64,000 nucleotides of DNA. It comes from Armatimonadota bacterium. Lineage in GTDB: Bacteria > Armatimonadota > HRBIN16. How positions within the stretch are numbered: position 1 is the first letter of the stretch; the number at the start of each line of letters is the position of its first letter. The DNA lies in the NCBI GenBank assembly GCA_040289885.1, contig PSLZ01000004.1:54094-118093 (forward strand), given 5' to 3'. The notes below the pieces were generated by a model. That model was not told the origin of the DNA, searched no databases, and saw nothing but the letters and a program-made list of their open reading frames with translations. A program made the translations under genes and the position numbers. Below, piece by piece: positions 12,351 to 49,492 of this stretch.

Positions 12351-12429
12351 TGGGGCGGCTGATGGGATTCGAACCCACGACCTCCTGAGCCACAGTCAGG
12401 CGCTCTGGACCAGCTGAGCTACAGCCGCC
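12351..12429 (-). tRNA. tRNA-His (GTG)
   Basis: Cloverleaf read by hand: encoded G-1, acceptor GCGGCTG/CAGCCGC, anticodon loop CTGTGGC, TTCGAAT T-loop, CCA encoded. Confidence 0.9.
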
Positions 12430-12446
12430 ACCGGAAGGGGGTTATT

Positions 12447-12523
<77 letters not shown>

Positions 12524-38946: not shown

Positions 38947-40293
38947 ATGGCTGTGTGGACATGGCTTCTTCCCGCGCTGGCGATGTGTCTGGGCTGGGGC
39001 ATCCGGGGTCAGTTTGGCGGCGAAACGGGTGCGATGGTGCCTGGTGCGCTGGTCGGGCTTGCACTGGCGATGCTGTCGAGGGGGAGGGGCAGCGAGGCTA
39101 TTCGGCTGGGTGCAGTGGGGGCGTTCGCCTGCTCGCTGGGCGGAATGATGACCTACGCGCAGACCGTCGGGTTGGTGCAGGACCAGTATCCTTCGCCGAC
39201 CTACTGGTGGGGATTGCTGGGGCTTGCGATCAAAGGCGGAGTGTGGATAGGTATCACCGGGGCATTTCTGGCGATTGCTACCAGCGACCGCTACCGCCCC
39301 AAAGAGTTGCTGGCGCTGATGATGGTGCTGTTCCTACTGGGAGCTTTGGGAGTGCAGTTGCTGAACCGCCCGCACAACCCCCCGCACGAACTGCCTCTTA
39401 TCTACTTCTCCAAACGCCTGGACCCCAAGCTGCGCGTGGAGTGGTGGGGTGGGCTGTGGTTTGCGCTGATCGGGCTGATGGTCTATACAAGAAGCACAGC
39501 CAGGCGGTAGCGATGGCGTTATGGGGGATTGTGGCAGGGGCTGTTGGCTTTAGCTTCGGCGAGGTCCTGCAGGCGTGGGGACACCACCAGAAGCCGCTTG
39601 GCACGGCGATCCAGCCATGGATGGACTGGTGGAAGGTCATGGAAATGAGTTTCGGCTTCATCGCTGGAGCGGGGCTGGGGATTGGCTGGCGGATAACAGG
39701 TCGAGGTAACACTCCCCCCACCGTTTGCCCCTTGGCATCGCCGGTGGGATAATGGCACCATTCTGGTGTGGTTGATACCGGTGCTGGCGGTAGAGCTGGG
39801 CGCGGACTGGGCAGAAGGCTGGGCGAACCTGCCTGCGGTGTGGATGCTGATTGGACTGCTGGGCAGTCTGGCGGGCAGTGGATGGGCGCCGTTCGGCACG
39901 GGAGTGGCAGTGACGCTGGTCTCCGCAACCAACACTCTGTCCTATCTGGTAGACGAACGCAAACTGCTTGCCTTCGGCTGGGGTTTTGCGGGGCTGGTAG
40001 TTCTGCTTTTCGTGACCGCCTATCTGACCGCGCTCTGGTACCGGCAGGACGCACCTGCCCGCAACTGGTGGTTGTGGACCGTGTGGGTTCAGACGGGGCT
40101 GACATGGGTGAAGTTCCTGCCGGAGGTCCTGCTCAAGCCGGACGAGCGTTTTTGGCTGGTGCGCTGCGGTGCTGGTGGGGTGGTGGAGATCAGCTTCGTC
40201 ATCTTGAGCGTGATACTGACCGCTTGGTGCCTGACGCACCCGGCTCAGTGGTCGGCACAGGGTAGCGGTGCAACCAGCCGCGCTAATGCCTGA
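38947..40293 (+). pseudogene. polytopic membrane protein in three pieces (two compensating frameshifts)
   Basis: Pieces 38947-39510 and 39697-40293 share one frame. The middle piece (about 39480-39752) reads in another frame. The second switch coincides with a C6 run at 39714-39719. Confidence 0.5.
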
Positions 40294-41144
40294 GCGTGCG
40301 CCCTGGGGGCGGGCATGGGCTGTCCATACTGAAGCCAGAGCGGGATAAAGCGCAGGTTGCTTACGCCATCGTGATGTACCTCTGCCCACAGGATGCCGGC
40401 GCGCCGGGTGGCGACGGAGCGTGGCGTGTGGACCAAGTTGCCTACGCTGTAGAGCACGTGCGTCTGCCCAATGCGCTCGTAGCCCTGTACCACGTGCGAG
40501 TGGTGTCCAACAATGAGGTCCACGCCCGCCTCATGGAGCAGACGTGCCATCCGCTTCTGCTTGGGGGAAGGGGCGTGCTCGTTTTCCACCCCCCAGTGCG
40601 GCACCGCGATGAGCACATCCGCCTGACGACGCACCTCTGGCAGGCGCGGAAGGATGTGCTCGAAAGTGGCAACTCCGGGTGCACTGCGCCTTGCCGCAAA
40701 GCCCCCCGGCACAATGGCGGTGAAACAGACGATGGCAACACGAACGCCCTTCGCCTCCACCCATATCGGCTGTGTCGCGTGTTGCACGTCTGTGCCCGCG
40801 CCTGCCCAGCACACCCCCGCTCGCTCCAGGTGAACGAAGGTATCCTGCAGGGCGACCGCGCCATAGTCCATGGCATGGTTGTTCCCCAGTGTGACCGTGC
40901 TGATGCCTGCCCGACGCAGGGCGGGTGCCAGCTCCGGCGGGGCGCGAAAGGTGTACGCTTTGTTGTCCATGGGTGTACCGCGCGTGCTGATACACCCCTC
41001 TAGGTTGGCGAGCACGCAATCCGCCCGCCTCACCAGAGGGGCGATCTTCAGGAACAGGTGGTCGATACCGCGCCGTGTCGCTACGGCGTGCACGTGCCTG
41101 CTCCAGATAATGTCACCACAAAACGCAAAGGTCAACCGAGGCAT
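40245..41144 (-). CDS. CapA/PGA_cap-family metallophosphatase-like protein
   Basis: FCGDI...LANLEG...TLGNNHAMDYG...PHWGVE blocks. Trimmed to the ATG at 41144. Confidence 0.7.
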   Translation of the reverse strand: MPRLTFAFCGDIIWSRHVHAVATRRGIDHLFLKIAPLVRRADCVLANLEGCISTRGTPMDNKAYTFRAPPELAPALRRAGISTVTLGNNHAMDYGAVALQDTFVHLERAGVCWAGAGTDVQHATQPIWVEAKGVRVAIVCFTAIVPGGFAARRSAPGVATFEHILPRLPEVRRQADVLIAVPHWGVENEHAPSPKQKRMARLLHEAGVDLIVGHHSHVVQGYERIGQTHVLYSVGNLVHTPRSVATRRAGILWAEVHHDGVSNLRFIPLWLQYGQPMPAPRAHAQALARLVAPLPCADH

Positions 41145-41227
41145 GGCGCCTTCCTGCCGACGGTGTGATTCATCCCCCATGATAACGCGACGGGGACGGT
41201 TCTTGCAAGTTCGGTCAGGCGGAACGG

Positions 41228-42598
41228 CTACGAACCCCTCCCGTTCATGCGCGCCGCTTCGTAGAGCATCTCCGTTATGCTCGGATGGGCGGGGAAGAGC
41301 GAGGCCAGCGTCTCTACGGTTGCATCCAACGCCATCGCCGTGGCCAGCCCTGCCAGCACATCCGCCGCATGTGCCCCGATTGCCGCGCCGCCTAGCAGTT
41401 TGCCTGTACGCTCCTCCACCACCAGCTTGACGAACCCTTCCGTCTCGCCCAACAGTTGCGCTTTCAGGATGCGGGCATGGTCCGCGCGGAGCACTTGTAC
41501 TGCCACCCCTTGCTGGCGTGCCAGTGATTCCGTCACGCCGACCTGCGCCACCTGTGGCTGAGTGTACACCGCCTCCACCACCAGATCGGCACGGAAGGGT
41601 GGGGTTGGTACATGGAGCGCATGGCGCACCGCTACCCGTGCCTGTGCCCAGCCACGATTCAGCGTGAAGGGCGGTCCCGCGGAGTCGCCAGCTGCGTAGA
41701 TGTGAGGCACAGAGCACTGCATATACTCGTTGACCAGAACGCCTTGTGGGGTTACCTGCAGGCCGGCGGTTTCGGCGTTCAGCCGCGCCAGGTCAGCTCG
41801 CCTGCCGATGGCGATGAAGGCGTGAGAACCTTCCCTCAGCCCACCGTTTGCCAGCCTGACCTGCACGCCCTGGTCGGTGGCGGTCACGCTCTCCACCGGT
41901 GCGGAGAGCAGGAGGTCGATACCCATCTGGCGGAAGGCGTGTTCCAGCGTTTGCGAAACCTCCTCGTCGGCGCGGGGCAGGAGCCGGGGCACATCGGTGA
42001 TGAGCGTCACCGCCGAGCCCAATACGCGGAACAGGTAGGCGAACTCACTGCCTGTGACTCCCCCTCCCACCACGACCATGTGCTCCGGGAGCGACTGTAG
42101 ACTGCTCGCGAAGCGTGGCGCAAGGATGCGCTTGCCATCGGGCTTCATGCTGGGTGGGAAAATAGGCACCGAACCGGTGGCGATCAACGCGAGGTCAAAG
42201 GTTATCTCTTGGACGGCTCCTTTCTCCGGCTGCACCTTCACGGTATGCGCGTCGAGGAAGGAGGCGACGCCGTGCACTACCCGCACTCCCGCCTGTTGTA
42301 ATGCCTGCTTCTGTTGCGTGCCCCATTGGTGCGTGCGCTGGCGGATGCGCTCCATCAGGTCCGCCACATCCGCGCCCACTGCCTGCATCTTCACTCCCCG
42401 ATGAGGGGCGTGACGGGCATCCCACAGGGTATCGGCTGACGTCAACAGCACCTTGCTGGGCACGAGGCTGTCCCAAGTGGTACGCCCGCCGATTTCGCCT
42501 TCGGCGACCAGCGTCACCTCCGCGCCCAGTTTCGCAGACTCTAGCGCGGCGTACACCCCCACCGCGCCCCCGCCGATGATGACAAAGCGTTTGGACAT
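41228..42598 (-). CDS. pyridine nucleotide-disulfide oxidoreductase family flavoprotein lacking the redox CxxxxC (LpdA/Rv3303c-like)
   Basis: FVIIGGGAVG FAD loop. GGRTTWDSLVPSK stands where E3 enzymes have GGTCLNVGCIPSK. AHPSITE is present near the C-terminus. Confidence 0.7.
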   Translation of the reverse strand: MSKRFVIIGGGAVGVYAALESAKLGAEVTLVAEGEIGGRTTWDSLVPSKVLLTSADTLWDARHAPHRGVKMQAVGADVADLMERIRQRTHQWGTQQKQALQQAGVRVVHGVASFLDAHTVKVQPEKGAVQEITFDLALIATGSVPIFPPSMKPDGKRILAPRFASSLQSLPEHMVVVGGGVTGSEFAYLFRVLGSAVTLITDVPRLLPRADEEVSQTLEHAFRQMGIDLLLSAPVESVTATDQGVQVRLANGGLREGSHAFIAIGRRADLARLNAETAGLQVTPQGVLVNEYMQCSVPHIYAAGDSAGPPFTLNRGWAQARVAVRHALHVPTPPFRADLVVEAVYTQPQVAQVGVTESLARQQGVAVQVLRADHARILKAQLLGETEGFVKLVVEERTGKLLGGAAIGAHAADVLAGLATAMALDATVETLASLFPAHPSITEMLYEAARMNGRGS

Positions 42599-42698
42599 GT
42601 GCTTCACCTCCAGCCTTCTCATGGAATTGGACTCGGCGAAGGGAAACAGAGATTCCTGCTTGGCTCTTCAGTATAGGATGTGATACAGTATACATTGA

Positions 42699-42712
42699 TG
42701 AATCGGTTAATG
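42699..42712. promoter_or_regulatory. LacI-type operator candidate, site A (TGAATCGGTTAATG)
   Basis: Lies 76-89 nt upstream of the ATG at 42788, just downstream of a TATACA -10-like hexamer. Confidence 0.5.
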
Positions 42713-42787
42713 CAGGTTTTTTCTGCGGTTTGTTTGGCGCAACGCCCGTTCATCAGGGCTCGGAAAAAATAGAAAGGAGGAAGGGCA

Positions 42788-43936
42788 ATGAAAGGGCTCG
42801 TGTTCGTGCTCACGCTGGTGCTGGCGCTGTCTGTCTGGGCGCAGGCACAGGTCAACGACGTGGTGATCCTGGACAGGGTGTTTAACGACGATTCGGACTC
42901 CATCAGCGCACACGTCAAGAACCTGCCAACGGTCATTCTGTCAGACACCAAGCTGGACGGCGACGGTAGTCCGCCCGAATTCGCCAACCGCCATGCGTGG
43001 TTCGTGTCCGCCGATGGTGTGGACCCGCTACAGCTCCCCCTGGATGTGGAGTGGACGCTGGAGTATGACCTCACGTTGACCGGCAACCCGGTTACGCCCC
43101 GGAAGGAAGCAGGAGGCTTCGTGCGCATCGGGATGCCATGGGGCTATTCCGAACTGCAGTTTATGGTCAACACCGATGCGCACGAAGTGGTGGCTTTTGG
43201 CTACCCGTTCCCGTTCTATCGGTTTAGCCTGTCCTACAATTCCGGCGATACCATCCATTTGGGAATCCATTTCTTCAAGGACGCCGATGGCAAATACAAG
43301 GTCATCTATATGGTAAACGAGCTAAGCAGTCCCGCGATGGCGTTGGCTGACCAGAGCATCATCGTGCAGAAGAACTGGATCACCCCGGGCGGCTACCTGC
43401 AGGTGAACATCCAGGCGGGTAACCCGAACAACGGCGGTACGGCGGTGTTCGATAACATCCGGTGGAATGGCATTCTTGTGCGCAAGGCCTACGCTATCCG
43501 GGGCAATATCGAACTGCAGGATTACGGCGGTGATGTGACGCAGGTGCCCATCAGCGTAGAGCTTCGCCAGAACGGCACACCAGTTCGCACTGAAACCCTC
43601 TACACCGACGCCCAGGGGAACTACGCCATACCCGACGTGGCGCCCGGCACCTACGATGTGGCGTTCAAAGCCAGTCATTGGCTGAGGGTGGTGGTGCCAG
43701 ATGTGACGGTGGTGAACTCCGACGTGACGGGTGTAGACGCCTCGCTGACCAACGGCGACATCGACGGCGACAACGAGGTGACCCTGTTTGACTTTGGGCA
43801 GTTGGTTTCCGCGTTCGGCAGTATGCCCGGCGATAGCAACTGGAACCCCGATGCCGACCTGGACGGCGATCAGGAAGTTACCCTGTTTGACTTCGGCGTG
43901 CTGGTGCGCAACTTCGGTGCCATCGGGGGTGAATAA
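42788..43936 (+). CDS. secreted protein: unknown ~210-aa N-domain, CarboxypepD_reg-like beta domain, two dockerin-type repeats
   Basis: Signal peptide MKGLVFVLTLVLALSVWAQA. Dockerin-type repeats DIDGDNEVTLFDFGQLVSAFG and DLDGDQEVTLFDFGVLVRNFG. The N-domain is paralogous to 43998-44759. Confidence 0.65.
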   Translation: MKGLVFVLTLVLALSVWAQAQVNDVVILDRVFNDDSDSISAHVKNLPTVILSDTKLDGDGSPPEFANRHAWFVSADGVDPLQLPLDVEWTLEYDLTLTGNPVTPRKEAGGFVRIGMPWGYSELQFMVNTDAHEVVAFGYPFPFYRFSLSYNSGDTIHLGIHFFKDADGKYKVIYMVNELSSPAMALADQSIIVQKNWITPGGYLQVNIQAGNPNNGGTAVFDNIRWNGILVRKAYAIRGNIELQDYGGDVTQVPISVELRQNGTPVRTETLYTDAQGNYAIPDVAPGTYDVAFKASHWLRVVVPDVTVVNSDVTGVDASLTNGDIDGDNEVTLFDFGQLVSAFGSMPGDSNWNPDADLDGDQEVTLFDFGVLVRNFGAIGGE

Positions 43937-43951
43937 CCTAGAGGGAGCATG

Positions 43952-43991
43952 AAAAAAGCGGGCAGGCGGAACGCCTGCCCGCTTTCCGTTT
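43952..43991. terminator. bidirectional intrinsic terminator
   Basis: A6, then an 11-bp perfect stem GCGGGCAGGCG-GAA-CGCCTGCCCGC, then TTTCCGTTT, between convergent genes. Confidence 0.7.
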
Positions 43992-43997
43992 GGGGGG

Positions 43998-44759
43998 TTA
44001 CCCTTTGCGCCGGCGCAGTGCCAGTGCCACCACGCCCAGCCCCAGCACCGCAGCGCTGGCTGGTTCAGGTACCGCCATGATGTGGCCAAACAACGCAGCG
44101 CCTGCGTTGTTCGGATTGCCAGCGTCTATCACCACCTGCAGGTAGCCGCCCGGCGTAATCCAGCCGGTGAACAGGCTTTGGGAATCCAGCGCCAGAGCGG
44201 GACTGGAAAAGCCGTTGGCATGGTAGATGACCTTGTACAGCCCGTCGCTGGAGTCCTGGAAGAAGGTCATCCCTAGCTTAATGGTGTCGCCCGAGTTGTA
44301 GGACAACCCGTGATTGGCGTTGAAGCTGTAGAAGGGGAAGGGCCAGCCAAACGCCACTACCTCATGGGCATCGGTGTTGACGATGAACTGTCCCTCCGAA
44401 TAGCCCCAGGGCATCCCGATGCGCACCAGGAAACCCGCCTCTTTACGGGGGCTGGTCGGCGTACCGATCAGCGTGAGGTCGAACGACACGATCCACGGCT
44501 GAGAGAGGGGAATCTGCGCTGGGTTGACCCCATCCGCGGACAGGAACCAGGCATGCCTGTTGGCGAAATCGGGCGCGGCACCATCCCCATCCACCTTGTT
44601 GTCGGTGAGCAGGATGTTGGGCCACGCCTTGATGTGGCTGGAGATGGAGTCGGGGTCGTCGTTAAACACCCGGTCCAGGATGACGGCGTCGTTAAGTTGT
44701 GCCCCTGCCCAGGTTGTCAGCCCCAGACTCAGCACTGCGACCAGCAAGAGCTTTTTGAT
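43998..44759 (-). CDS. PEP-CTERM-anchored protein with the same unknown N-domain
   Basis: C-terminal VPEPASAAVLGLGVVALALRRRKG. The best start context is AAGGAGAAGGTAAC-ATC (signal IKKLLLVAVLSLGLTTWAGA). The only canonical in-frame start is the GTG at 44846. Confidence 0.65.
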   Translation of the reverse strand: MKKLLLVAVLSLGLTTWAGAQLNDAVILDRVFNDDPDSISSHIKAWPNILLTDNKVDGDGAAPDFANRHAWFLSADGVNPAQIPLSQPWIVSFDLTLIGTPTSPRKEAGFLVRIGMPWGYSEGQFIVNTDAHEVVAFGWPFPFYSFNANHGLSYNSGDTIKLGMTFFQDSSDGLYKVIYHANGFSSPALALDSQSLFTGWITPGGYLQVVIDAGNPNNAGAALFGHIMAVPEPASAAVLGLGVVALALRRRKG

Positions 44760-44818
44760 GTTACCTTCTCCTTTCTTGAGAATTGGAATGGTTGGAGCGA
44801 GCCGCTCTTCAAGCACTA

Positions 44819-44832
44819 CATTAACCGATAAA
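44819..44832. promoter_or_regulatory. LacI-type operator candidate, site B (CATTAACCGATAAA)
   Basis: Differs by one mismatch from the 12-mer core. It lies downstream of the minus-strand promoter TTGACT-17-TAAAGT (44881-44909). Confidence 0.45.
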
Positions 44833-44958
44833 ACAGATTTCCCCACCTATTTCACCACCTCAGCCGCTCCTCTGCGCTCTACTTTAGCACAATTGGGTGC
44901 AGGAGTCAAGTAGAATCGCGGTTTTTTTCGAAAATTTTGATGAAAATCAGGAAACCCC

Positions 44959-44987
44959 TTGACAAGTTGTGCAGGGTGGGTTATACT
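44959..44987 (+). promoter_or_regulatory. promoter TTGACA-17-TATACT of the LacI gene
   Basis: -35 at 44959-44964 and -10 at 44982-44987. Confidence 0.5.
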
Positions 44988-44994
44988 AAGAGTG

Positions 44995-45008
44995 CATTAA
45001 CCGATTAG
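44995..45008. promoter_or_regulatory. LacI-type operator candidate, site C (CATTAACCGATTAG)
   Basis: Lies between the -10 and the ATG at 45020, the geometry expected for autoregulation. Confidence 0.5.
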
Positions 45009-45019
45009 TGGATAAGACG

Positions 45020-46045
45020 ATGCGAAGAGAGCGAGTCACGATAGCCGATGTAGCGCGCCGTGCGGGCGTGTCTAAGGTCACCGTCTCGTATGTGATCAAC
45101 GGGCGAGAGGGCAGAGTGCGTATCAGCGATGAAACCCGCCAGCGCATCTGGGAAGCCATTCGCGAGCTGGGTTACCGTCCCAACGCCATTGCCCGCGCTC
45201 TGACGCGACAACGCACCTCTACCATCGGCGTCGTGATGCAGTACGCGGCGATCTTCGGCGGGTGGTCGGGCTTTATCCTGGAGTTACTGCACGGTGCATC
45301 GCACGAGGCGATCGCACAACAGTACGACCTGATGATGTACACGGGAGCACATGGCGACGATGCGGAACACGAAGCGAACGCCGTGATGGATGGACGCATC
45401 GACGGTGCACTGCTCCTGCGCGACATCGACGACCCCCTGTCCGACATCCTGGCAGACAGCGGTTTCCCGCATGTGTTGATCTTTACCCGCTCCCGCCGCC
45501 CCGACGTCCACTATGTGGACTGCGATAACGTGAAGGGCGGCTACCTAGCGACCAAGCACCTGCTGGAGCTGGGGCATCGGGCGATTGTGCACCTGCGGGG
45601 AAGCTCGCGTTCCGCGCCTGCGCTGGACCGGTGGCATGGCTACGTGCAGGCGATGCGTGAGGCGGGTATCGAGCCCGACGAAAGTTGGGTGATCGAAATG
45701 CACGGTCCGCTGTCGGATGTGACGCCGTTGGTGGAGCTGATGCGCTCACCCAATAGGCCGACTGCCATCTTCGCGTGGAGCGACGACGTGGCGATTCGGG
45801 CGATGCGGGTGGTGCGTGAGATGAACCTGCGCATCCCCGAGCACGTGGCGGTGGTGGGATACGACTCCACAGAGGTCTGCAATCATACGGACCCACCGCT
45901 GACCAGCGTGCGCCAGCCCATCTACGAGATGGCACGGGAAGGGGTCAGGACGTTGGTGCGGCTCATCAACGGCGAACGCCCCCGTCGCATTGCGCGCGTG
46001 TTCGAGCCCACGCTGGATATCCGCCGTTCCTGCGGGGCTTCCTAA
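45020..46045 (+). CDS. LacI-family transcriptional regulator
   Basis: VTIADVARRAGVSKVTVSYVING HTH followed by a periplasmic-binding-fold body. Confidence 0.88.
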   Translation: MRRERVTIADVARRAGVSKVTVSYVINGREGRVRISDETRQRIWEAIRELGYRPNAIARALTRQRTSTIGVVMQYAAIFGGWSGFILELLHGASHEAIAQQYDLMMYTGAHGDDAEHEANAVMDGRIDGALLLRDIDDPLSDILADSGFPHVLIFTRSRRPDVHYVDCDNVKGGYLATKHLLELGHRAIVHLRGSSRSAPALDRWHGYVQAMREAGIEPDESWVIEMHGPLSDVTPLVELMRSPNRPTAIFAWSDDVAIRAMRVVREMNLRIPEHVAVVGYDSTEVCNHTDPPLTSVRQPIYEMAREGVRTLVRLINGERPRRIARVFEPTLDIRRSCGAS

Positions 46046-46094
46046 AAGCGGCACAGCAGAGACGAAGGGGGAAACTGTTTCGCTACTTTCGCAG

Positions 46095-46108
46095 TGAATC
46101 GGTTAATG
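46095..46108. promoter_or_regulatory. LacI-type operator candidate, site D (TGAATCGGTTAATG)
   Basis: Lies 23-36 nt upstream of the ATG at 46131. Confidence 0.5.
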
Positions 46109-46130
46109 TCACCAAGCGAGGTGTGGAGAG

Positions 46131-46355
46131 ATGAACCTGAAAAAAGAGGTCAGTCCGCCCGTGGCGATCACCATCATCGTCATTGTGGTTCTCGCGCTTG
46201 TCGTGGGCTACATGGCGATGTCGGGGGGATTCAGCCGCGGCACGCGGACCGCGAAGGAGGCGGGCGCAGGTCCGCCCATGTACCCGGGCGTCATCCCGGG
46301 TAAAACCAATGCTCCCGTTGGTGCCCCCATCATGCCGGGGGCGCAGGGACGCTAA
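46131..46355 (+). CDS. small single-TM protein
   Basis: TM segment VAITIIVIVVLALVVGYMAM with a Pro/Gly-rich tail. GGAGAG SD is present. Confidence 0.4.
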   Translation: MNLKKEVSPPVAITIIVIVVLALVVGYMAMSGGFSRGTRTAKEAGAGPPMYPGVIPGKTNAPVGAPIMPGAQGR

Positions 46356-46394
46356 AGCACATCAACAAAACATCAAGAAGGAGGTCAAACACCA

Positions 46395-47234
46395 ATGTTA
46401 CGCAACCGAGCGTTTACGCTCATCGAACTGCTCGTCGTTATCGCGATCATCGCGATATTGGCGGCGATCCTGTTCCCCGTGTTCTCACAGGCACGAGAAT
46501 CGGCACGAGTTACCTCCTGCTTGTCGAACATGAAGCAGATCGGGCTCGCTATCCGCATGTACTCGCAGGACTACGATGAGGTCCTGCCCATGCGCCGAAC
46601 CTGCCCGGGTCAATGGTGTGCACAGGGGTGTACGGCAAACTGGAAGCACATGCTGTTCCCCTACATCAAGAACTGGGACCTGTTCAAGTGCCCCAGCAAC
46701 CCGCTCAACCGCACCCTGGACGACACCAGCGGTGACCTGGACGGCAACGGCACGGTAGACTGCGAAGTGTATCCTCCGACCGTGCAGAAAACTGTCCGCA
46801 GCTACTTCTTGTACCACGCCTTCTTCAAGTCGGGCAACCCCGTAGGCTCCGGCGAGTGGTGGGCCGGGTTCAACTACGCCGAAAACAACTTCCCGTACCC
46901 GGCGAACACCCTTATCGTCGGCGAGCACAAGGACGTCTGGCCCGACTACGGTCCGTGGATGGCGTTTGATCCCAACTGGGGTCCTGCGGGCGCGAACTTC
47001 GGTGCACGCCACCGCGGTAGCGACCGCGCGGTGAACCTCACCTACCTGGATGGGCACGCCAAGTGGACCACCTGGGACGCCGTCTGCACGCACGACAACC
47101 CCGACGGCACCAACAAGTGGGGCTACGCCAAAGACGCCGACGGCAAAGTGATTATCGGCGGAATGGACCTGACCTGGCTGGACACCATGTGCAGCACGTT
47201 CCGCGATGCCGTACGTAACGGTCAGGTGCGCTAA
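46395..47234 (+). CDS. prepilin-type N-terminal cleavage/methylation protein, DUF1559-like pseudopilin
   Basis: [26 protein letters not shown]. The C-terminal [11 protein letters not shown] resembles the H-X9-DG/DUF1559 family end. Confidence 0.85.
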
Positions 47235-47315
47235 GCACCCTCCTTCAGCGGGTGGGGGGCACTTCCCCCACCTGTCTTTCGCTACACCCAAACAGACGGA
47301 GGCACAGAAACAGCA

Positions 47316-48554
47316 GTGAATACCCAGCAGTTACTGGACAAGACCCAGAAACGCACCTGGCGCTTCTTCTGGCAAGAATCGCACCCCGACACCGGCTTAA
47401 CCAAGGACCGAGCGAACAACTTCACCTCCGACAACTATACCGCTTCCAGCATCGCCAGCACCGGCTACGCACTGGCAGCAAACGTGGTGGCGGTACAGCG
47501 GCGCTGGCTGGAACACCGGCAAGCCGAACAGCGAACCCTCAAGACCCTGCGCTTTGTGCTGGAAGAGATGGAGCATTTCCACGGGTGGCTGTATCACTTT
47601 GTGGACTGGCGCACCGGCAAGCGGATATGGAACTGCGAGGTCTCCACCATCGACACCGCGCTGTTTCTGGCGGGGGCACTGCTGGCGGCAGAGTTCTTCA
47701 AAGGTGAGGTTGCCCGACTGGTAGACCGGTTCTATCGCCGACTGGATTTTGAGGTCATGCGCACCGACGGCGAGACAAAGCCCGACGAAATGCTGTTGTC
47801 ACATGGGTGGAAGCCTGAGAACGGCTTCCTAAACACCCGCTGGCATTCCTACTGCGAGCACATGATTCTTTACCTGCTCGCGCTGGGAGCGCCGCACCAG
47901 CGCATACCCGAAAGAATGTGGGACGCTTGGCAACGCCCGGTGGTCGCCTACAACGGCAAATACGAGCATCTGGCGGGTGGTCCGCTGTTCATGCACCAAA
48001 TGTCGCATCACTATATCGACCTACGCAACCGTCGCGACCGCTTAGGCTGGGACTACTGGGTGAGCTCGGTCAACGCCACTCTCGCTAGTCGGCAGTTCTG
48101 CATCGACAATAAGGAACGGTTCAAAACCTTTGACGACGACGTTTGGGGGCTGACCGCCTCGGACGGACCCGATGGCTATCGCGGTTACGCCGCCATTGTG
48201 ATGTGGGACAAGCCCGATGGCACCGTTGCGCCCACCGCACCCATTGGCTCGGTGATCTTTACCCCCCAGGAATCCCTGCGCGCGATGCAGACCATGTACG
48301 ACCGCTACCGTGACCGGATCTGGGGGCGCTATGGCTTCAGCAACGCTTTCAATGTAGACCGAGACTGGTGGGACCAGGATGTCATCGGCATCGACCTGGG
48401 CATGGCACTGCTGGCGATAGAGGACTATCGCACTGGCAGTATCTGGAAGCTGTTCATGCGCCGCCCGGAGGTACAACGGGGGCTACAGCGGGCGGGATTT
48501 CGCGTGACGAAGGAGCCTGCGCCGCGTCCGCTCCGAAGGCATGTTGGCGTCTAG
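47316..48554 (+). CDS. putative glucoamylase-family / GH144-like (beta-1,2-glucanase family) protein
   Basis: The N-terminal block TWRFFWQESHPDTGLTKDR and an alpha/alpha-toroid-like body are recalled from PF10091-type proteins. This is recognition only. Confidence 0.5.
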   Translation: MNTQQLLDKTQKRTWRFFWQESHPDTGLTKDRANNFTSDNYTASSIASTGYALAANVVAVQRRWLEHRQAEQRTLKTLRFVLEEMEHFHGWLYHFVDWRTGKRIWNCEVSTIDTALFLAGALLAAEFFKGEVARLVDRFYRRLDFEVMRTDGETKPDEMLLSHGWKPENGFLNTRWHSYCEHMILYLLALGAPHQRIPERMWDAWQRPVVAYNGKYEHLAGGPLFMHQMSHHYIDLRNRRDRLGWDYWVSSVNATLASRQFCIDNKERFKTFDDDVWGLTASDGPDGYRGYAAIVMWDKPDGTVAPTAPIGSVIFTPQESLRAMQTMYDRYRDRIWGRYGFSNAFNVDRDWWDQDVIGIDLGMALLAIEDYRTGSIWKLFMRRPEVQRGLQRAGFRVTKEPAPRPLRRHVGV

Positions 48555-49492
48555 CGCTCCGAACCAGCGATCAGCGTGCGGGGCGGGATGAAAGTGATGT
48601 TCTCGCGGGCGGTCTCCAGGCTCTGCACGGGAACATGCTCCTGCCCGCGTAGAAGCTCTCCGATGATCGCCTGCACAGAGCTTTCAGGGGTAGATGCCCC
48701 GCTGGTGACGCCCACTACGGGATAATCGCTACGCCATTCGGGAAGCACTTCTGATGGCTCCAGCAGAAGATAGGCGGGTGTACCTGCCTCTCGTGTCACC
48801 TCGCACAACCGATTGGAGTTACTGCTAGAGCGGCTACCGATCACCAGCACCAGGTCGCACATCTGCGCCAATTGCTTGACCGCGTTCTGGCGATTGGTGG
48901 TAGCGTAGCAGATGTCCTCTTTGGGGGGAGTGTGCAGATGCGGAAAGCGGCGCCGCAGGACTGCCAGAATGCGCTCCACCTCGTCCACGCTCAGGGTAGT
49001 TTGTGTGGCTACCGATAGCGGAGCATCGGGCACCTGCACGCTCTCTGCCTCTTCCACGCTGGTAATCAGCGTCACCTGTTCCGGTGGCGCATGTCCCATC
49101 GTGCCCTGCGCTTCCACGTGCCGGTGATGCCCAATGTACAGGATGTGGAACCCCTGCGCGGAATACCGCTCGACCTCGCGGTGCACCTTCGATACCAGCG
49201 GGCAGGTGGCGTCTACCACCCGCAGTCCACGCTCCTGTGCCTCGCGCCGAACCTGGGGCGAAACGCCGTGCGCGCTGAACACCACCACCGACCCTGGCGG
49301 CACTTCGGACAGCTCTTCGACAAATATCACTCCCCGCTGTTCGAACGAGCGCACCACGTGCTCGTTATGCACAATAGCATGGCGGGTATACACCGGCGCG
49401 CCATAGCGCTCCAGCGCGAGGTTCAGCACCTCGATGGCGTAGGATACCCCCGCGCAGAACCCACGCGGCGAAGCTAAGAGGATTCGTTCCAT
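48551..49492 (-). CDS. ispH: 4-hydroxy-3-methylbut-2-enyl diphosphate reductase
   Basis: SPRGFCAGV, VHNEHVV, ATCPLV and GSRSSSNSNRL. Confidence 0.92.
   Translation of the reverse strand: MERILLASPRGFCAGVSYAIEVLNLALERYGAPVYTRHAIVHNEHVVRSFEQRGVIFVEELSEVPPGSVVVFSAHGVSPQVRREAQERGLRVVDATCPLVSKVHREVERYSAQGFHILYIGHHRHVEAQGTMGHAPPEQVTLITSVEEAESVQVPDAPLSVATQTTLSVDEVERILAVLRRRFPHLHTPPKEDICYATTNRQNAVKQLAQMCDLVLVIGSRSSSNSNRLCEVTREAGTPAYLLLEPSEVLPEWRSDYPVVGVTSGASTPESSVQAIIGELLRGQEHVPVQSLETARENITFIPPRTLIAGSER

Follow-up and report, generated by a model that had tools for sequence, protein, structure and literature searches.

What governs a gene cluster in which a glycoside hydrolase, a pseudopilin and two anchored surface proteins are found next to a gene for a LacI-type regulator? 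The question is raised by positions 42,699 to 48,554 of a 64 kb stretch of DNA from an uncultured Armatimonadota bacterium (contig PSLZ01000004.1; the whole 64,000 nucleotides are called the window below), where a 12-mer, AATCGGTTAATG, recurs upstream of several genes. The cluster comprises two secreted paralogues with a ConA-like domain, one with a dockerin-like end and one with a PEP-CTERM anchor, the regulator gene lacI, a small membrane protein, a DUF1559 pseudopilin and an enzyme of glycoside hydrolase family 144 (GH144). An initial annotation, made from the sequence, had proposed that the motif joins the surface and pilin genes to a sugar-responsive LacI circuit, and this link is supported by the form of the motif, the promoter geometry, conservation and gene linkage. 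We consider it quite probable that the four motif copies are operators of the LacI protein encoded at 45020-46045, which would repress three units of a predicted beta-1,2-glucan regulon.

Four operator-like sites

The 12-mer occurs exactly at 42701-42712 (forward strand), 44995-45006 (reverse) and 46097-46108 (forward), and with one mismatch at 44819-44830 (reverse). That it is repeated with one near-copy, and that all copies are in 5' regions, had been noted in the initial annotation and is borne out by a recount, by shuffling and by a matrix scan. The sites, with the promoters and the regulator gene that they accompany, are as follows (bits are scores of a 16-bp weight matrix; L001 to L008 are loci of close relatives, see below).

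42660..42689, forward: promoter of the ConA-like/dockerin gene, TTGGCT, 18-nt spacer, (TGa)TACAGT
42697..42712, forward: operator O_A, GATGAATCGGTTAATG, halves GATGAATC and GGTTAATG; 27.0 bits; kept in L001, L002, L003, L007 and L008
44819..44834, reverse: operator O_B, GTTTTATCGGTTAATG, halves GTTTTATC and GGTTAATG; 25.7 bits; kept in L001-L005, L007 and L008
44881..44909, reverse: promoter of the PEP-CTERM paralogue, TTGACT, 17-nt spacer, TAAAGT; blocks conserved in relatives
44959..44987, forward: lacI promoter, TTGACA, 17-nt spacer, TATACT; 11 of 12 consensus matches; invariant in 8 of 8 relatives
44995..45010, no strand assigned: operator O_C, CATTAACCGATTAGTG (reverse strand CACTAATCGGTTAATG), halves CACTAATC and GGTTAATG; 22.5 bits; past the -10 box and ahead of the lacI ATG at 45020
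45020..46045, forward: LacI-family regulator, 341 aa, recognition helix GVSKVTVSYV
46093..46108, forward: operator O_D, AGTGAATCGGTTAATG, halves AGTGAATC and GGTTAATG; 24.3 bits; 47 nt past the lacI stop codon, 22 nt before the ATG at 46131

The 11-mer ATCGGTTAATG is found four times in the window and nowhere in it beyond these 5' regions, and the 7-mer GTTAATG is likewise confined to the same four sites; the G+C content of the window is 60.5%. No exact copy of AATCGGTTAATG appeared in any of 100 dinucleotide-preserving shuffles. The weight matrix was trained on the four sites together with their orthologous copies and was scanned over the window, where the runner-up independent site scores 9.8 bits; the top score per shuffle, in 30 shuffles, has a mean of 14 and a maximum of 19.9 bits.

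The operator takes the form of an even palindrome of 16 bp around a central CG, with an AAnCGnTT core, as had been suggested from its resemblance to LacI operators. Its consensus is nnT(G/T)AA(T/C)C followed by GGTTAATG (the left half is nnTKAAYC in degenerate code); the right half-site is identical in all four operators and the left one is looser. O_C is the most palindromic of the four, and in relatives it reads CATTAATCGGTTAATG or CGTTAATCGGTTAATG, which are almost fully symmetric, the former at 7 of 8 positions. In a survey of about 1300 LacI-family regulators, most operators were even palindromes with CG at the centre and a length of 16-22 bp, and autoregulation applied to 72% of the regulators (PMC4052901). 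We assign the motif to the LacI operators because both its palindromic form, which falls within these bounds, and the presence of a site at the regulator's own promoter match that description.

A short 12-mer might also be repeated by chance, or be left behind by a mobile or repetitive extragenic palindromic (REP)-like element with no regulatory role, and three of the four copies have just 14-16 bases in common. We regard such an origin as extremely unlikely. The likeness among copies ends within 16 bp, which rules out a mobile or REP-like repeat; the sites stay in place across eight genomes with diverged flanks (see below), and each copy has a fixed place relative to a promoter or ribosome-binding site. 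The shuffles, the phylogenetic footprint and the matrix scores together effectively refute this reading. Rfam, searched at E <= 1, gave nothing meaningful in 42000-49000, and an RNA element was likewise rejected.

Read as LacI operators, all four sites fall in 5' non-coding DNA in the neighbourhood of promoters, one of which is that of the regulator itself. Two of them stand at transcription starts. O_A was described as lying just after a -10 hexamer, which is correct: the -10 element TGaTACAGT is at 42681-42689 (relatives have TTGACA...TGnTACACT, with the -35 and the extended -10 kept), and, as the first base of O_A is 8 nt past this box, the operator spans roughly +1 to +16, 75 nt ahead of the ATG at 42788. 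O_C begins at the same distance, 8 nt, past the -10 box of TTGACA-17-TATACT, and its location between that box and the lacI ATG was also called correctly. O_B is downstream of TTGACT-17-TAAAGT, as annotated; being 46 nt past the -10 box, it belongs to the 5' leader and not to the promoter, and is about 60 nt ahead of the start of the PEP-CTERM gene. O_D was placed just upstream of an operon of the small membrane protein, pilin and GH144 genes, and this location stands. A promoter of its own for O_D is not supported: alignment with relatives shows neither a -35 nor a -10 box kept in the interval from the lacI stop codon to O_D, and for this reason O_D is more likely to act as an internal operator on a transcript running from lacI through the membrane protein and pilin genes to GH144.

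Between O_B and its -10 box (44835-44880), about 11 bp are inserted in the window, and O_B and O_C are spaced by 176 bp in the window versus 166-168 bp in seven relatives. DNA looping between the two was considered and dropped, as the spacing differs by about 0.9 helical turn and is too imprecise for phasing.

The regulator and the conservation of the sites

The call of a LacI-family gene is upheld by Pfam, which finds the HTH_LacI domain (PF00356, 1.4e-18) and a sensor of the periplasmic-binding-protein type I kind (PF13377, 8.9e-35; PF00532, 2.8e-18). The lineage inhabits hot-spring mats, and its closest public relatives are metagenome-assembled genomes of Chthonomonadia and "bacterium HR16". 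Eight loci, L001-L008, with LacI 88-96% identical, served as the set of close relatives for the comparative footprinting that had been proposed at the outset. All four operators were found at the same, orthologous positions in these loci while the flanking DNA has diverged; in the three intergenic regions compared between the window and this set, the only invariant blocks are the -35, the -10, the operator and the ribosome-binding site.

The more distant set (L009-L018 and L026-L031) comes from Chthonomonadales, Capsulimonadaceae and Fimbriimonadales and has LacI about 50% identical. In these orthologues, palindromes of the TTAACCGGTTAA or TGAACCGGTTCA type coincide with or adjoin the -10 box of the lacI-driving promoter. 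Related palindromes were seen in L009-L014, L016, L018, L026, L028, L029 and L031, and one accompanies this promoter in every orthologous locus whose upstream DNA was available. They include GCTTAACCGGTTAAGC, GGTGAACCGGTTCACC, ACTGAACCGGTTCAGC and CGCTAATCGGTTAACG; most are located just past the -10, the one in L029 is upstream of it, and the one in L026 precedes a ConA-like gene that itself precedes lacI. A Fimbriimonadales genome of 2.99 Mb (AP024673) has a TAATCGGTTAAC-type site.

From these observations it is very likely that the neighbouring LacI-type repressor binds the four palindromes. They could instead be true operators of another transcription factor encoded elsewhere, with the adjacent LacI binding something else. 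Such an arrangement would be compatible with the failure of a simple recognition code: a one-residue rule relating the helix variants KVT, KAT and KTA to the outer bases TTAATG, GCTTAA and GGTGAA fitted the first 14 loci and broke down on loci outside its derivation set, and for that reason is not used here as evidence. We nevertheless find it very unlikely that a different regulator is involved, as the motif has the LacI-family signature (even palindrome, central CG, AAnCGnTT core), a related palindrome tracks the lacI-driving promoter over about 50% protein divergence, and the cluster has no further regulator gene.

A metagenome scan with one 16-mer variant of the operator, GCTGAATCGGTTAATG, returned at least 120 stretches. 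Twelve among the matches listed are from this lineage, each an A-type or D-type site belonging to this one cluster; the other matches listed are chance occurrences in unrelated metagenomes, so that no further targets were found among the matches listed for this one variant.

Genes of the cluster

The genes that follow the four sites, all within the window, are these.

42788..43936, forward: secreted 382-aa protein with a signal peptide, a ConA-like domain (about residues 22-230), CarboxypepD_reg and a dockerin-like double Ca-loop repeat
43955..43985, no strand assigned: hairpin that separates the convergent paralogues, with a perfect 14-bp stem and a 3-nt loop; it probably terminates transcription in both directions
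43998..44759, reverse: secreted paralogue of about 253 aa with a signal peptide, a ConA-like domain and a PEP-CTERM anchor
46131..46355, forward: small protein of 74 aa that spans the membrane once and has a tail rich in Pro and Gly; without a match in Pfam or NCBIfam
46395..47234, forward: 279-aa pseudopilin with the prepilin-type signal RA/FTLIE, a long alpha-1 helix and a DUF1559 head
47316..48554, forward: 412-aa GH144-type (PF10091) enzyme without signal peptide

The two surface proteins were initially seen as a dockerin-bearing protein and a PEP-CTERM paralogue, both of unknown fold. Paralogy is clear, with 65% identity over 229 residues, and so is the PEP-CTERM anchor, VPEPASAAVLGLGVVALALRRRKG (PF07589, 1.6e-5, 25.2 bits with a cut-off of 20.7), which consists of the C-terminal motif, a transmembrane segment and a basic tail. 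The dockerin match of the 382-aa protein, at 18.8 bits, is below the cut-off of 22.9; its homologues P0007, P0013 and P0052 carry PF00404 matches, and a duplicated DxDxDxxVTLFDFG segment and an internal direct repeat of 58 nt are visible in it. The fold can now be predicted with confidence: AlphaFold2 models the shared N-terminal domain as an all-beta sandwich (predicted local distance difference test score, pLDDT, 92), and the Foldseek neighbours of this model are ConA-like lectins (Emp46p/Emp47p and those of legumes) together with lyases of PL7/PL36, among them the alginate lyases A1-II' and Aly36B (probability 1.0; TM-scores of 0.45-0.57; 7-14% identity). The beta-sandwich is what the window family has in common with these proteins; it differs from them in its low identity, in its own set of invariant residues (R68, E107, Y203 and Q205), and in being tied to GH144 and not to uronic-acid polymers.

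No Pfam or NCBIfam model was found for this N-domain family, which has 72 word-sharing homologues and 456 representative clusters among 1.84 billion proteins. Its members end in PEP-CTERM, dockerin, type IX secretion system (T9SS) sorting or Ig-like domains, and these C-terminal modules mark the family as secreted or surface proteins. ConA-like genes adjoin PF10091 genes in L026/L027, L033 and L034. In L026, from Fimbriimonadales, a 30% identical homologue is found just upstream of lacI with a CGCTAATCGGTTAACG site in front; L033 has the order pilin, GH144, ConA-like/dockerin, and in L034 the ConA-like and GH144 genes are adjacent. In P0238, of 753 aa, a ConA-like domain, a PF10091 domain and a dockerin are parts of a single chain, the first being 37% identical to its counterpart in the window and the second 26% identical over its full length. 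Because it is co-regulated with GH144 as predicted here, adjacent to it and once fused to it, the family is a candidate beta-1,2-glucan-binding module; to our knowledge, no carbohydrate-binding module for beta-1,2-glucan has been described.

The start codon of the PEP-CTERM paralogue (44757-44759, reverse) is ATC in the window and ATG in relatives, where it is 7 nt past the ribosome-binding site AAGGAGAAGG. The sole canonical in-frame start upstream of 44759, a GTG at 44846, would enclose O_B and add 29 residues before the signal peptide. As a 282-aa form of the protein (P0020) is recorded on 3 contigs, the ATC is probably genuine, reflecting a start that is non-canonical or a gene that is weakened.

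The gene order of lacI, pilin and PF10091 gene is kept in more than 20 loci of Chthonomonadales, Capsulimonadaceae and Fimbriimonadales, and wherever downstream DNA was available, genes for a DUF1559 pseudopilin and a PF10091 protein come after lacI. The whole cassette of LacI, small membrane protein, DUF1559 pseudopilin and GH144 is found in at least three lineages of Armatimonadota. The small protein, often part of the cassette, is 62-112 aa long, is a membrane-anchored protein or a lipoprotein, has no family match, and takes varying positions in the cassette (window, 46131-46355; L026, 5773-5991; L028, 4600-4788; L029, 4615-4953; L031, 3618-3923); examples of its Pro/Gly-rich tails are EAGAGPPMYPG, EQAGAGKPVRPG and DAGLGMPAKPGG.

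The call of a pseudopilin with DUF1559 was sound. Its prepilin-type signal (PF07963, 3e-8; TIGR02532, 8.7e-8) reads RA/FTLIELLVV, with Ala instead of Gly at -1 and the Glu at +5 in place, and the model has a helix at residues 9-59. The DUF1559 match (PF07596, 3.5e-11, 44.1 bits with a cut-off of 23.3) covers positions 2-60 of the 268 in the profile. The class III signal, the FTLIE motif and the long hydrophobic alpha-1 helix are shared with pseudopilins of type II secretion and with type IV pilins (GspG, PilA). Unlike these, the window pilin has a DUF1559 head of about 220 residues, and its gene is part of a predicted sugar-regulated catabolic cassette and not of a secretion or pilus operon; a prepilin peptidase or an assembly machine is not encoded near the cluster. 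The model of the head has pLDDT 90.6, yet Foldseek, at E <= 1e-3, aligned nothing in the PDB with it beyond the N-terminal pilin helix, and no solved structural relative of the pseudopilin was found by sequence search. Among the paralogue families of unknown function in Planctomycetes, DUF1559 is the largest, and it is abundant in Armatimonadota too; in Planctopirus limnophila it is the biggest paralogue family, with 68 copies, two of them essential (PMC10632474). The work on DUF1559 read here assigns it no function and treats it just as a large paralogous family.

Other partners of DUF1559 genes were seen as well. A pair of TPR and FG-GAP/ASPIC (UnbV) beta-propeller proteins is inserted between pilin and GH144 in two loci of Chthonomonadaceae (L010, 8419-11153; L017, 2182-5072), and such a pair follows a DUF1559 gene without a LacI neighbour in L032 (6154-9101), which makes it a second recurring DUF1559 partner. 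For P0160, a pseudopilin 36% identical to the one in the window, the gene immediately preceding encodes a LacI protein, and the next two encode flavin adenine dinucleotide (FAD)-dependent proteins (Trp_halogenase/FAD_binding_3-like), with no GH144; from this context, 'LacI-pseudopilin-enzyme' may be a general cassette design. In the window, the pilin and GH144 open reading frames (ORFs) share one frame, the pilin stop being followed by 81 nt without a stop (47232-47316), and a weak hairpin, GGGGGCACTTCCCCC, is located between them at 47255-47269.

The gene initially called GH144-like is indeed of this type: its product matches PF10091 (2.5e-65) and aligns end to end, from residue 4-6 to 400, with the solved structures of XcSGL (8XUL, 4e-64) and CpSGL (5GZH, 2e-52). 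XcSGL is specific for beta-1,2-glucan and inactive on other glucans, and the clan is defined by residues that in CpSGL are E211, F268 and Y330 (PMC12102758). Their equivalents are kept as the E of 'sycEhmily', the F of 'ggplFm' and Y288. The window enzyme has in common with CpSGL and XcSGL the (alpha/alpha)6 PF10091 domain and these residues; it differs from both in that they are secreted, whereas it begins at the catalytic domain, like PgSGL1 and PgSGL2, the known cytoplasmic beta-1,2-glucanases of family GH192. The absence of a signal peptide follows from the ORF, which cannot begin before 47316, together with the alignment from residue 4. We predict from the sequence that this protein is a cytoplasmic endo-beta-1,2-glucanase.

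Upstream of the ConA-like gene, several close relatives encode a GH94 phosphorylase of 791 aa (L001, 1023-3398; L002, 1087-3459; L007, about 347-2713; L003, 3-1172). Three of these genes have an operator of their own, at a distance of about 10-15 nt from the GH94 start codon; it reads GCTGAAACGGTTAATA in both L001 and L002, and GCTGAACCGGTTAGTA in L007. Among solved structures the phosphorylase is matched best by cyclic beta-1,2-glucan synthase (Cgs), whose GH94 domain scores 562 bits, versus 453 bits for cellobiose phosphorylase; at E <= 1e-10 it had no match to any chain bearing the name 1,2-beta-oligoglucan phosphorylase. The strength of the cellobiose phosphorylase match, together with the lack of a signal peptide in GH144 and of an importer in the cluster, could mean that the operators are real but serve the use of another beta-glucan (cellobiose or cellodextrin) or the turnover of the cell's own glucan, and not that of foreign beta-1,2-glucan. 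We think this unlikely. The GH144 member XcSGL acts on beta-1,2-glucan only and CpSGL is described as a beta-1,2-glucanase (PMC12102758), the clan-defining residues of GH144 are kept, and the closest relative of the GH94 protein is the beta-1,2-specific Cgs domain; moreover, two secreted, anchored proteins of lectin fold belong to the predicted regulon, and for this reason an outside substrate is favoured. A regulon for foreign beta-1,2-glucan is therefore retained as the preferred reading.

The cluster is flanked as follows.

41228..42622, reverse: pyridine-nucleotide disulphide oxidoreductase, outside the unit
48551..49492, reverse: ispH (lytB), convergent

A maximal ORF with a PGA_cap (capsule synthesis) domain, 40245-41717 (reverse), overlaps the oxidoreductase ORF by about 490 nt; as the Pfam domain begins at residue 196, its true start is probably well downstream of the listed GTG. 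The only matches of Rfam or ARAGORN in the whole window are two tRNAs, tRNA-His(GTG) and tRNA-Arg(TCT), in tandem at 12351-12523 (reverse).

The proposed regulon and its precedents

The motif statistics, the geometry of the sites, their conservation, the gene content, the predicted folds and the neighbourhood and fusion links are direct results of the analysis; binding by LacI, repression rather than activation, the nature of the inducer, and roles for the pilin and the ConA-like proteins are inferred, in the following scheme. A LacI dimer would bind the 16-bp palindromes. Without inducer, it would repress three units: O_A would act at the transcription start of unit 1, the ConA-like/dockerin gene; O_B in the leader of unit 2, the ConA-like/PEP-CTERM gene; and O_C at the transcription start of unit 3, lacI with the genes of the 74-aa membrane protein, the DUF1559 pseudopilin and GH144, with O_D acting inside that unit. 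O_A and O_C would block initiation, and O_B and O_D would act as roadblocks. O_D may thereby uncouple basal LacI synthesis, some LacI being made with the downstream genes off. In several close relatives the GH94 phosphorylase would be a fourth target. The inducer, which would release LacI, is likely to be a beta-1,2-gluco-oligosaccharide (sophoro-oligosaccharide). The ConA-like proteins, anchored by PEP-CTERM or dockerin-like ends, would capture beta-1,2-glucan at the surface, where they might also cut it; in the envelope, pseudopilin and small membrane protein would act together, probably in capture or uptake; and GH144, having no signal peptide, would cut the imported chains in the cytoplasm, as GH94 would in the relatives.

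Several points weigh against this scheme. Symmetry is just 4-6 of 8 positions per site, because the left half-site is variable, and the KVT helix is also paired with CTGAAyCGGTTCAG in L028, L029 and L031. The main gap is the lack, in the cluster, of a transporter by which the substrate could reach a cytoplasmic GH144, and GH144 orthologues in some other lineages have signal peptides. The window itself is without a GH94 gene, the oxidoreductase gene directly abutting the cluster, and the relatives' GH94 could be a cellobiose phosphorylase. The matrix scan covered the 64 kb window, and the regulon may reach beyond the cluster.

The scheme has close parallels among the local autoregulated LacI regulons (Ravcheev et al. 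2014, PMC4052901), of the RbsR, GalR and PurR type. It shares with them the HTH_LacI domain and the periplasmic-binding-protein-like sensor, the 16-bp palindrome with central CG, a site at the regulator's own promoter, and further sites 17-85 bp before adjacent carbohydrate genes. It differs in having an extra operator between lacI and downstream genes of the same operon, and Armatimonadota were not part of that survey. Neither the operator CATTAAyCGGTTAATG nor its set of targets (pseudopilin, ConA-like surface proteins, GH144) is among the described regulons that we found.

The nearest functional precedent is the sophoro-oligosaccharide cluster lin1838-lin1843 of Listeria innocua, with a LacI regulator, a GH94 SOGP, a GH3 enzyme and an ATP-binding cassette (ABC) transporter (PMC3960220). 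In both systems a LacI gene adjoins beta-1,2-glucan genes, and a GH94 partner is present in L001, L002 and L007, though this 791-aa protein is nearer to the GH94 domain of Cgs. The window cluster lacks the ABC transporter and GH3 and has instead an endo-acting GH144 without signal peptide; a pseudopilin, a small membrane protein and lectin-fold proteins occupy the place expected of a solute-binding protein and permease. Domain searches of the cluster genes found no SusC-like TonB-dependent transporter and no SusD-like lipoprotein, so the cluster is not a polysaccharide utilization locus of the Bacteroidota type. We tentatively suggest, as a possibility that we ourselves hold in some doubt, that DUF1559 pseudopilins are substrate-specific parts for glycan capture or uptake that replace solute-binding proteins or SusD, serving beta-1,2-glucan in this cluster together with a new surface family that is lectin-like, similar to carbohydrate-binding modules.

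The regulatory logic, then, is that of a standard local LacI regulon, and what is new is that DUF1559 and a new lectin-like family are connected with beta-1,2-glucan. For Armatimonadota, which are missing from the survey of this regulator family, the analysis predicts a LacI operator together with its regulon. It offers a functional handle on DUF1559, one orthologous group of which shares its operon, in several orders, with an enzyme whose specificity is defined. Finally, a small ConA-like family that has no Pfam model gains a testable sugar context, as a candidate beta-1,2-glucan-binding module.

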